DNA from: a virus
Taxonomy: Duplodnaviria; Heunggongvirae; Uroviricota; Caudoviricetes
Length of the DNA stretch: 16,503 nt
IMG/VR virus record: IMGVR_UViG_2703718806_000013
Direction: 5' to 3' (one strand)
Part shown: piece by piece, positions 12,001 through 15,000 of the stretch
How the letters are laid out: each line of letters opens with the position of its first letter
Position numbering within the stretch: position 1 is the first letter of the stretch
Program-made: the position numbers

Positions 12001-15000
12001 GGAGGTTTTATTATGACTTTTATAAAACATAAGGCATCACACAAAACAGCCTGCCTTATTGCACAACACGGGAAAAATCACATGCATATTGCCTGCTTGT
12101 TTCTGCGTAAAGCATACGGGAGATAATAATGCATCAGAAAACAGCAGAACACGAACAAACCAGAGTATTGCTGACCATCAAAAACGGGAAAGTAATATTA
12201 ATTCGTCATGTTCATGACGATGAATTTGTAGGAAATCTTTCAACATTCCTGTTTATTGCAGAAAAGGCAGGATATGACGTTATTGCACCAGCAGATGAAG
12301 ATGAGGAATAAATTTCATGCACTACGCTGAATTCCAGGCTGAAGCAACAGCCAATGGTATACAAACAGGCAGTATGACTATTGATTATCACGACGCCATA
12401 CGCCGTCTGGATGCTGGAGAATTCGATACTCCTAATGTGCGAGGTTTACGTATCCTTCAGTGTCTCGCGCAAGCTGACGAAGCAGGATTACTGGGAAAAC
12501 TTCCGGTTGAGATGAAGGTTGCCCAGTGGCGATGGTTGTATGTGACGACATTCATCAACGAAGAAGAAGACAAGAACGGCACAATTGATGTCCCGAATGA
12601 ACACGGAACAACAGATCGCGCCGTAATATATAACGGGAAGCATGGAGTTATGACTATATACCCTAGTCCCATTCGGTTTGCCTTACAGCAGTATATTGAA
12701 TGGAATTTAATTCAAACATATGGCGAGGCTGAGGGAATGGGAAGAGCGCTGTTTCTTTATCAGAAAATGCTCACCACTTCCCCTGATAAAGGTTTCATTC
12801 TTTCAGATATAGGTCGAGAAGGGCTTGAACTCCTTCTGGATGAAATGATTAACGACCTGAATACTCATGGTATGCCAGAAGGCCAGTGACACATTAAATA
12901 TTAAGAAGAATATAACTCTTCCGTTTTTTACTAACCGTTTATATGAAAAGCGACCGTGAATTAAGCAGAGTAAAACTGCTTTTAATCCTTGCCACAGTAC
13001 TGACACTAACAGAAATCATTATTCTCTTTATTGCGCTGTCTGTCAGTTAAAAATATCGGGATACCACATACCAATGAGACTGTATTTCACAATAGTAATT
13101 TTACTGGCAATTATCGCATGCATTTACGGATTACTCGTTCCGTTCCTTATATCCATGAAGGATACGAGAGCAGTTATTTCTGGCTTTGCACTGGCGTTTC
13201 TGACCCCGCCCTGCATTTATGCCATTTACAAGGGTCTTTCTTTCACTAAGGATAAAAAATGAAAAAAATTATTTTTGCTTTAGCCATTGTTCTGCCGACC
13301 ATTGGTCTTGTCGGTTGCGATCGCGTTGAGCCCGGTAATGTTGGCATCAAAGTAAATAAACTGGGCGACGATAAAGGCGTCGGTGAGGTGGTCGGTGTTG
13401 GTCGCTACTGGACTGGCTGGAATACTGAAGTTTACATCTTCCCCACCTTCAAGCAAATGAAGACCTACGATGAACCGTTCAGCTTTCAGATGAGTGACGG
13501 CACAACCATCGGCTATCACATCGGTGTGGCCTACAAGGTTGATCCATCCAAAGTTACTACAGTGTTTCAAACCTACCGCAAAGGCGTGGATGACATTACC
13601 GACACTGACCTGCGCCAGAAGATAGCCGACGCACTCAACCGACTGGCCAGCAAAATGACCACCGATAAATTTATCGACGGTGGCAAGTCTGAACTGCTGG
13701 ATTCAGCACTTAAAGATATTCAGGCAGAAATGACCCCCATCGGCATTCAGGTAATGAGCCTCTCTTATGTCGGTAAACCGGAATACCCGCCAACCGTGAT
13801 CGACAGCATTAATGCCAAAGTCACAGCGAACCAGAAAACCCTGCAACGCGAACAGGAAGTAAAACAGCGCGAAGCGGAAGCCAACATGTTGCGCGCGGAA
13901 GCAGCCGGACAGGCTGACGCCATTCGCACAAAAGCCCAGGCCGAAGCCGATGCTATTCGTTTACGCGGTGAAGCTCTGCGCCAGAACCCCGGTGTTATGG
14001 AGCTGGAAGCCATCAATAAATGGAACGGCACACTGCCGCAATACATGACCAGCGGTGCCAATACACCATTTATCCAGGTTAAATAACTTATATGCCCGGC
14101 AGGCCGCCGGGCTAAGGGAAAAGCAGATGAACACCCATAATGCCCAACCGCAAATAATGAACTATGACCCGAATCTGACGTCATGCGGACGCATGGCAAA
14201 ACAAACCGTTCGATTAACTTTCGGGTTATGGGAATACCGCGAAACATTCGAAGTTACTGTCGGCGGCAATCTGACCGGACTGGATGTTATCAGTTGCGCT
14301 ATTGAAAGCCTGTACGCAACACTGCCTTATGAAGAAGTCGAGGATGAGCGCACAGGGGGAACAGATATCATGGCCACCATTAATATTGGCGAACTGATAT
14401 GTCAGGATGAAGACCTGTCCGGAGAGAGCTGGCTTGCTGGAATGCTTGTAGCTGCAGAAATTATCAGTATTGAACCCGCTACAAATATACGGCTCTGAAG
14501 TTCTCGCTATTCAGAGAACAGGAGAAAAAATGTTCGATTTGATTAATCAAGGACAACTGTATACCGACAGTGCCGGTTACCCGGTCAAAATTATTCACTG
14601 CATAAATAACATCGTGTTGTACAGAAGAATGGATGGACGAACACAGTCGGTAAAAATAAACGATTTTAATGAACTGTTTGAACGAATCGATCACCAGGAA
14701 TACCGACAAATTCTGGCAGAAACAGAACAAGAAGCTCATCTGAAAAAATTACGTGCCATGAAAAGGAAGTAAAGAATGAATAAAGCGTTTGAGCTATGGG
14801 TACGCCAGCGTTACGGCAATCGCTATGACCTGACGCGAGATGTTGACGGTTTCTACTGCCGTGAAGTTGTGAAACGAATGTTTGACGTGTGGTGCCACTG
14901 CCGTGGATGAAAATTTTATGAGGTTGGCATGCAGACAATCATCTATCAGATAACCCCCAGCAAATGGTGTACGGAGAGAGTCCTCATTGCATCAACAGGG

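Follow-up and report, generated by a model that had tools for sequence, protein, structure and literature searches.

A two-helix membrane protein and an SPFH lipoprotein form a conserved pair encoded in a Shiga toxin prophage and in other temperate and virulent phages

The stretch of DNA analysed here (the window; 16,503 bp, IMG/VR record IMGVR_UViG_2703718806_000013) is the regulatory and early half of a Shiga toxin 1a (Stx1a)-converting lambdoid prophage that adjoins yecE in Escherichia coli 88-3493 and is related to phage phiP27, as seen in the annotated record. On its forward strand are two overlapping genes, one for a 62 amino acid (aa) protein with two hydrophobic helices, a predicted inner-membrane subunit (positions 13074-13262), and one for a 275-aa SPFH/Band-7 lipoprotein (13259-14086). 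The natural fusions of the two proteins, the co-occurrence of their genes and the gene overlap indicate that the pair is one conserved functional unit, and the pairing is robust. In kind, the system is an SPFH scaffold that has a membrane partner of its own.

Both genes had been annotated by the NCBI Prokaryotic Genome Annotation Pipeline (PGAP) [accessions WP_001242072.1 and WP_000720013.1] and belong to the catalogued families phrog_1130 and phrog_200, hence the 62-aa gene is neither unannotated nor novel. An earlier reading of the window made without database searches (the sequence-only reading) had described these two genes and a 35-aa open reading frame (ORF) upstream at 12943-13050, and an ORF check agreed for all three. 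It had also noted that the gene for the two-helix protein overlaps the SPFH gene by ATGA. Hydropathy confirms the two hydrophobic segments, and the sequence at 13259-13262 confirms the overlap, the TGA of the 62-aa gene sharing ATGA with the ATG of the SPFH gene. This overlap suggests that translation of the two genes is coupled. The Shine-Dalgarno sequence of the SPFH gene, AAGGA, lies 9 nt upstream of the start, within the 3′-end of the 62-aa gene. An overlapping or abutting layout is also found in phiP27, P88, Fraca, VEc25, phiE125, D14B and cr85_1.

The SPFH lipoprotein family comprises 3003 clusters at 50% identity (E ≤ 1e-3), and in nearly all of its members, ∼270-300 aa in length, the N-terminus has a signal sequence and Cys. 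An N-terminal extension of 55-100 residues is present in 18 of the best 150 family representatives (P0160, P0164, P0172, P0177, P0179, P0181, P0185, P0198, P0203, P0206, P0207, P0209, P0223, P0239, P0243, P0253, P0268 and P0167; a fused gene lies at 5001-6053 of locus L086). In these natural fusions, two hydrophobic helices precede a basic stretch, which leads to a third helix that resembles a signal sequence and closes with a small residue and Cys; the SPFH domain comes next. A hidden Markov model (HMM) of the two-transmembrane (2TM) domain, built from 17 of the N-terminal extensions (P0167 was dropped in profile building), was scored on the small ORFs of the window, on all its six-frame ORFs and on 200 shuffles of the 62-aa sequence. 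The 62-aa protein scored 54.6 bits (E 1.5e-16) against 7.3 bits for the best shuffle, and small ORFs upstream of the SPFH gene in RCS47, Fraca and P88 scored 43, 38 and 30 bits, respectively. When the fused extensions were searched against Pfam, no family covered the 2TM domain. Because all 18 extended proteins retain the basic stretch, the third helix and the small residue and Cys ahead of the SPFH domain, the fusions may be precursors that are cut internally by signal peptidase II. The phrog_200 profile has 379 positions, and the window protein spans positions 81-359, which is consistent with the existence of fused members.

Co-occurrence of the separate genes was assessed in a genome scan that used one genome per species and a 4-sequence alignment as query, taking proteobacterial loci with an SPFH protein of at least 34% identity. 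All 30 such loci (two with an insertion between the genes) have a 2TM gene ahead of the SPFH gene, at a distance of 0-153 nt, and they span Enterobacterales, Xenorhabdus, Rhodanobacteraceae, Pseudomonas and Caulobacteraceae. Of 17 phage contexts sampled, 12 likewise have a significant match to the 2TM HMM upstream of the SPFH gene, and the lambdoid prophages of Salmonella, Klebsiella and Enterobacter share an identical layout of the pair. The co-occurrence of the two genes, on which the sequence-only reading had staked its proposal, is thus strongly borne out by the locus counts and by the match to the fusion-derived HMM; nor was the lipoprotein gene picked up without its partner.

Two loci, in Shigella flexneri SFBU1023 (L006) and E. 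coli ECMA0423 (L007), were considered as SPFH loci that lack a 2TM gene and rejected as such, as the 2TM gene is present ∼800 bp upstream, beyond an insertion. The ∼780 bp insertion falls exactly between the two genes (L006 3210-3992 and L007 3201-3992) and uncouples them. It is a candidate IS1 insertion sequence, being of the size of IS1 and having antisense-looking ORFs that fit it.

The hydrophobic segments of the 62-aa protein are at approximately residues 3-27 and 33-52, and the C-terminus is Lys-rich. The protein matches phrog_1130 ('membrane protein') with an E value of 1.2e-22 and has no match in Pfam at E ≤ 0.1. In the numbering of the window protein, the family signature consists of G19, P23, L25, S27, D/S30, T31, V34, G37 and P45, with conservation of 90% for P23, 97% for S27 and 83% for G37, and the window protein carries the motif P-x-L-[IV]-S-[AS]-x-[SD]-[TD]. 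The ratio of non-synonymous to synonymous substitution rates (dN/dS) for the gene is 0.3-0.5, indicating moderate constraint.

The 275-aa protein starts MKKIIFALAIVLPTIGLVGC-D. Codons 1-19 (13259-13315) predict a hydrophobic signal peptide with an MKK start, and the lipobox, LVGC at residues 17-20, places the Cys20 codon at 13316-13318 and Asp21 at +2, conforming to the pattern [LVI][ASTVI][GAS]C with Asp at +2. Residues 22-208 match PF01145 (Band_7) with 108 bits (gathering cut-off 23.6), and the match to phrog_200 ('lipoprotein') has an E value of 5.4e-114. Cys20 is invariant in one family alignment (A1) and present in at least 90% of another (A4), and W255 and G257, which are part of a conserved C-terminal motif, W255-x-G257-x2-P260, are invariant or nearly so in both. 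The dN/dS of 0.01-0.04 indicates very strong purifying selection, and amino acid identity is ∼85% across Escherichia, Salmonella, Klebsiella, Enterobacter and Citrobacter.

An AlphaFold2 model built from a deep alignment (mean predicted local distance difference test [pLDDT] 82.5), for which a single-sequence model with a pLDDT of 45.7 was discarded, has an alpha/beta SPFH body and a long wall helix at 178-253, made up of a continuous helix at 178-242 (∼65 residues) and a second helix at 244-253. The model, the lipobox and the PF01145 match together uphold the earlier description of an SPFH lipoprotein with a C-terminal helix. Foldseek gave a probability of 1.00 for full-length chains of the human prohibitin complex, E. 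coli HflK/C, erlin, stomatin, flotillin and QmcA, with E values of 6e-14 to 1e-11 over ∼260-300 columns for prohibitin (8rrh), HflC/HflK (7vhq, 9cz2), erlin (9vvj) and stomatin (9z7u), and all six types have been solved as rings or cages. The predicted structure thus shows the full architecture of cage-forming SPFH proteins. The nearest solved protein by sequence in a PDB search is HflK (E 7e-4).

Similarity to the P2-like phage P88 and to P1-like phages begins at the lipobox, at a mosaic boundary at approximately 13307-13318 (codons 17-20 of the SPFH gene). The mature part of the SPFH gene is 86-93% identical in nucleotide sequence to its P88 and P1-like counterparts, and the signal peptide and the 2TM gene are of another sequence type. 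Relative to phiP27, synonymous divergence (dS) is 0.046 for the 2TM gene and 0.29 for the SPFH gene. The 2TM gene and the signal peptide appear from these comparisons to have been exchanged as a block.

Among known SPFH systems, HflK/HflC, a cage by which FtsH is modulated in E. coli, shares with the phage lipoprotein the SPFH1/2 domains, the long wall helix and the C-terminal cap segment, as well as, on the orientation inferred here, an SPFH domain that faces the periplasm on the inner membrane. HflK is the best PDB match by sequence and HflK/C structures (7vhq, 9cz2, 7wi3) are among the top fold matches. However, HflK and HflC are two paralogues, each with an N-terminal transmembrane helix, whereas the phage system has one SPFH gene, a predicted lipid anchor and a separate 62-aa 2TM partner with no SPFH domain, and its SPFH protein is 17-20% identical to HflK/C. 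The SPFH-NfeD operons (QmcA-YbbJ, YqiK-YqiJ and the archaeal stomatin-STOPP) also place an SPFH scaffold beside a small membrane partner that works with it, and one of the fold matches is QmcA-YbbJ (8z5g), but the 62-aa partner has no NfeD/OB-fold domain (PF01957 was not matched). QmcA and YqiK face the cytoplasm, whereas the phage SPFH protein is predicted to be exported as a lipoprotein. The eukaryotic prohibitin, erlin and stomatin are the top full-length structural matches (8rrh, 9vvj, 9z7u), and some relatives of the SPFH lipoprotein are named 'prohibitin family protein' by NCBI, but these are organelle proteins with a transmembrane helix or hairpin as anchor, 13-17% identity and other clients. 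The NCBIfam FloT equivalog gives 16.1 bits, well under its cut-off of 700. Given the predicted lipid anchor, the single SPFH gene, the non-NfeD partner and scores far under the equivalog cut-offs, the phage SPFH lipoprotein is a distinct subfamily, neither HflK/C nor an NfeD-type system.

The window proteins are members of phrog_200 and phrog_1130, two PHROG families that are listed without a function and without any connection to each other. Phage SPFH lipoproteins are mentioned repeatedly in genome papers, always without a function (PMC13239085, PMC10269572, PMC4936722), two of which speculate on mimicry of HflC (PMC10269572, PMC4936722), Band 7 ORFs in T4-like phages were noted in 2006 (PMC1524935), and in a 2026 paper the presence of SPFH in a phage still 'remains unclear'. 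A literature search turned up neither an experimentally determined function of a phage SPFH protein nor a defence system based on SPFH, and the only prophage SPFH protein found with experiments is PM0222 (Pmorf0222) of a Pasteurella multocida prophage. This HflK/C-like SPFH protein is a TLR1/2 agonist borne on outer-membrane vesicles and a virulence factor, the deletion of which attenuates virulence (PMC9872710). It was studied only in this capacity, and is likened to the phage lipoprotein by description only. The 2TM partner, the pairing and the fusions were not found described in that search, although absence there is no proof of novelty. The sequence-only reading had recognised no described system of this composition, which holds for the pairing and the fusions but not for the genes themselves, as these were already catalogued and phage SPFH lipoproteins had been noted in papers. 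The 2TM partner, the fusion evidence, the inferred topology and the distribution across lifestyles are added here to a family that is itself catalogued but uncharacterised.

The SPFH gene is widespread. Searching with the SPFH protein (tblastn) gave matches in 414 of 50,697 phage records, virulent phages included, and the gene is present in 560 of 5426 complete E. coli genomes (∼10%), with 226 places on plasmids. The temperate carriers are the phiP27-like Stx phages, Hendrixvirinae (Fraca), the P2-like P88 and P1-like phage-plasmids such as RCS47, and all have the 2TM gene. Strictly virulent carriers include the N4-type VEc25, in which the pair is genes 19 and 20, beside RNAP2; the rV5-like 4MG and KB57, in which the 2TM gene is present and a 54-aa gene precedes the SPFH gene; and the Schitoviridae phage Piffle and Pseudomonas phage D14B, both with the 2TM gene. 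Three T4-like or large metagenomic phage contigs with the 2TM gene also belong to this virulent group. In crAss cr85_1 and Burkholderia phiE125, a two-helix ORF has the same layout but a weak 2TM score. There are also cellular copies. Those of Dyella and other Rhodanobacteraceae are syntenic across species over the whole 8.8 kb, with BlaR1/BlaI-like, hemerythrin and ribonucleotide-reductase genes as neighbours, and a fused 2TM-SPFH member lies between RNase R and rpsP; none of these neighbours gives a functional clue.

In VEc25, gene 18 (L085 1407-1721), directly upstream of the pair, is annotated as a superinfection exclusion protein. The interposed 54-aa ORF of the rV5-like phages (4MG_115, L083 1832-1996; KB57_116, L099 1332-1496) is conserved, soluble and charged, and may be a lineage-specific third component.

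In temperate elements the pair lies among repressor-controlled early genes. In lambdoid prophages it is flanked by the CI-side genes and by xis-int, with all of these on one strand; in P88 it is between cox and the replication gene; and in RCS47 it takes the place that tciABC has in P1, within the ban operon and downstream of the C1 operator Op72. This tciABC/ban region of P1-like elements is variable (PMC9603915). Judging from gene position, the module is probably expressed with the early lytic genes, namely those of the leftward operon in lambdoid phages, of the early operon in P2, of the ban operon in P1 and of the region next to RNAP2 in N4.

The leading reading, which we consider about as likely as not, is that the pair constitutes two subunits of a single periplasm-facing inner-membrane SPFH ring or cage that is made early and aids productive growth. 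The domain order of the fusions, together with the positive-inside rule, points to a 62-aa protein with both termini in the cytoplasm and a short periplasmic loop, and to an SPFH domain that is periplasmic at the inner membrane. The lipoprotein would be exported, lipidated at Cys20 and retained at the inner membrane, Asp at +2 being the classical E. coli inner-membrane retention signal for lipoproteins. On the periplasmic face, it would then use its long C-terminal helix to assemble as a ring or cage, like HflK/C, prohibitin, erlin and stomatin, an analogy drawn because every structurally characterised relative forms one. The two-helix subunit would span the bilayer, which a lipid anchor by itself cannot do, and its motif at the periplasmic edge (P23, S27, D30 and T31) probably contacts the membrane-proximal SPFH domain. 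Transcribed with repressor-controlled early genes, the module would be made after induction or infection and not in the quiescent lysogen, and would enclose or shield a conserved inner-membrane component or membrane patch during productive growth. By analogy with HflK/C, FtsH is the leading candidate for the client, the main alternative being that the module simply keeps the inner membrane stable until lysis. Since the carriers include virulent phages and free-living bacteria and conservation is high, we favour action on a conserved component of the host inner membrane, or on the membrane, above lysogeny control or defence.

A more far-reaching form of this proposal, which we advance tentatively and hold to be rather less probable, is that the pair forms a periplasmic SPFH cage system of ancient origin, complete in itself and spread by phages. 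Its two subunits could be made as one precursor split by signal peptidase II, and virulent and temperate phages would both deploy it early, either to take over a conserved machine of the inner membrane, for example FtsH, or to hold that membrane in an energised state until programmed lysis. SPFH lipoproteins are among the commoner unexplained phage genes, including those of Shiga toxin prophages and P1-like phage-plasmids, and the pairing, the fusions and the spread across lifestyles replace a vague annotation by a defined system of two components with a set topology, for which N4, a P1-like phage-plasmid and phiP27 would be tractable models for client and phenotype. If the client were FtsH or the lysis machinery, the module would be a general means by which phages manage the inner membrane of the host, and an early takeover cage would amount to a widespread, unrecognised host-takeover function.

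Several points weigh against a cage of this kind made early in the lytic cycle. An Arg is present at +3, which, in the light of sorting studies of LolCDE, may weaken the Asp+2 retention signal. No 2TM gene was detected next to the more distantly related SPFH genes of Bacteroidota, Verrucomicrobia and other groups, and upstream of the SPFH gene PaP4 has a single-helix protein, phiCbK a three-helix protein and Erwinia phage Pistou none. The HflK/C equivalog models score below cut-off (TIGR01933 hflK, 22.7 against 159.4 bits; TIGR01932 hflC, 24.9 against 134.4 bits), and FtsH is a candidate by analogy with HflK/C alone. The AT-rich spacer ahead of the pair (12890-13073), with its weak hairpin and U6 tract, and the G+C hairpin downstream of it (14094-14112) could be features of a moron-like cassette, in which case expression in the lysogen would be possible; a promoter of the module's own is likewise possible, as the promoter scan was too crude to exclude one. 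PM0222, likened by description only, is reported in outer-membrane vesicles (PMC9872710), and the literature search found no oligomer, localisation, expression or phenotype data for any member of the family.

The sequence-only reading had proposed lysis-lysogeny control, superinfection exclusion or membrane-based abortive infection. A role that is specific to lysogeny or confined to defence is argued against by the virulent phages and chromosomal loci that carry the pair. In a rival reading based on exclusion or defence, which we judge unlikely, a periplasm-facing complex would block genome entry or abort infection by other phages, in the lysogen or in the already infected cell. Phage envelope lipoproteins often act in exclusion, as do Llp of T5 and Cor of phi80 and N15, and exclusion by an already infected cell, known for Imm and Sp of T4, would suit virulent phages as well. 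The pair also occupies accessory, variable positions (the tciABC slot, PMC9603915; beside the annotated exclusion gene in VEc25), and the AT-rich upstream spacer and downstream hairpin are moron-like. However, none of the five proteins tested matched a PADLOC-DB 2.0.0 family at E ≤ 0.1, and the very strong purifying selection and ∼85% identity across genera are unlike typical fast-evolving exclusion genes. The conserved non-phage chromosomal copies are also hard to accommodate, and exclusion in the lysogen in particular does not fit the position of the pair inside repressor-controlled early operons. The emphasis of the earlier reading on lysogeny or defence is not supported, but exclusion by infected cells, or an action on FtsH of a more general sort, may still apply.

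Lysis-lysogeny control by mimicry of HflK/C, in which the phage SPFH protein would alter the access of FtsH to CII, CIII or Xis-type regulators, has been suggested as speculation in genome papers (PMC10269572, PMC4936722). In its favour are the best PDB sequence match to HflK, the same fold and the same periplasmic orientation. The pair also lies in the leftward early operon, which in lambda carries cIII. The proposal is nevertheless weakened to the point of being distinctly improbable, because the pair is also present in strictly virulent phages (N4-type, rV5-like, Schitoviridae, T4-like contigs and crAss) and in bacterial chromosomes, and because of its place in early lytic operons. It further occurs in P1-like and P2-like phages, the switches of which are not known to use a CII/FtsH circuit. 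The HflC and HflK equivalog scores quoted above fall far short of their cut-offs of 134 and 159 bits, and the 17-20% identity makes co-assembly with HflK/C unlikely.

The 35-aa ORF (12943-13050, forward strand), which lies inside the AT-rich spacer, had been taken as a third member of the module. It is a real, unannotated ORF, but as part of the module it does not stand up, since it is restricted to one lineage and not demonstrably coding. It was called neither by PGAP nor in any phage record, and it has no Shine-Dalgarno sequence. A DNA search located it only in phiP27-like elements (tblastn with the peptide missed even phiP27, presumably because of low-complexity filtering); it is absent from P2-like, P1-like, virulent and every other non-phiP27-like context of the pair, and the prophages of Klebsiella and Enterobacter have no room for it, the 2TM gene there directly adjoining the gene upstream. 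Compared with phiP27 there are 6 non-synonymous and 2 synonymous changes (dN/dS 1.0), the dN/dS relative to Salmonella relatives is 0.59, and the score with the 2TM HMM is 1.6 bits. Taken together, the comparisons place it outside the conserved module. That it nonetheless encodes a genuine micro-protein that acts together with the pair, or is a small toxin of the membrane in its own right, seems to us highly doubtful. Such a role would be suggested by its single strongly hydrophobic segment and charged N-terminus and by its conservation in Salmonella relatives, where at 84% nucleotide identity the same 35 codons are open with a conserved hydrophobic core and the DNA just upstream has indels. 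The missing Shine-Dalgarno sequence, the dN/dS of 0.59-1.0, the confinement to phiP27-like elements and the lack of annotation all speak against it.

A promoter-like site (CTGACA-17-AATAAT, 10/12 matches) is found antisense within the 35-aa ORF, at 13046-13018 on the minus strand. Its hexamers are not conserved in phiP27 or in Salmonella relatives and the site is probably due to chance. A type I toxin with an antisense RNA, considered for this ORF, was dropped for the same reason, which also counts against a three-component module.

Any triacylated lipoprotein can stimulate TLR2, and the window is from a Shiga toxin prophage. A lysogenic-conversion lipoprotein of the surface or of vesicles, acting on the animal host like PM0222, a prophage HflK/C-like SPFH protein in outer-membrane vesicles the deletion of which attenuates virulence (PMC9872710), is nevertheless very improbable, as it leaves unexplained the wide occurrence in virulent phages that infect environmental, plant or gut bacteria and in the chromosomes of soil Rhodanobacteraceae, as the inner-membrane 2TM partner and the fusions point to a function at the inner membrane, and as PM0222 is likened to the phage family by description only.

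The part of the window at 12880-14120 is 100% identical to the E. coli 88-3493 chromosome, and the region is 94-95% identical to phiP27 and a set of Stx2 phages. The Stx1a operon occupies 1-1236 on the minus strand (stxB1a ∼1-270 and stxA1a 280-1236 in the annotated record). It is followed in the prophage by the Q antiterminator gene, replication genes and regulators, and then by a rightward block ending in xis and int. Upstream of the pair is a gene for a 190-aa protein (12317-12889) that belongs to phrog_1515 and has no Pfam domain; it is kept with the pair in phiP27-like and Salmonella prophages and not elsewhere.

The 190-aa gene is separated from the pair by the 184 nt AT-rich spacer (12890-13073, forward strand, G+C content ∼33%). 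Just after the stop codon of the 190-aa gene, at ∼12905-12929, is an A+T-rich hairpin (GAAGA...UCUUC, −3.3 kcal/mol) followed by U6. It could be a leaky terminator that parts the module from the upstream genes, but the fold is no better than that of shuffled sequences and is too weak to call. A promoter scan, itself crude, revealed no convincing forward sigma-70 promoter in the spacer upstream of the pair. A 7-bp G+C hairpin (CCCGGCA/GCCGGG type, −17.1 kcal/mol, z −1.8) is present directly after the SPFH stop codon, at 14094-14112. There is no U-tract on either strand and it was not terminator-like in a terminator scan; it could be an RNA-stability or processing element. An Rfam search of 12700-14300 gave matches at chance level only.

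A mechanically called ORF of 147 aa at 14055-14498 begins with GTG inside the last part of the SPFH gene, so that the two overlap. At this position PGAP has a 123-aa DUF5406 protein starting at ∼14127, and the shorter start is more plausible than the GTG at 14055.

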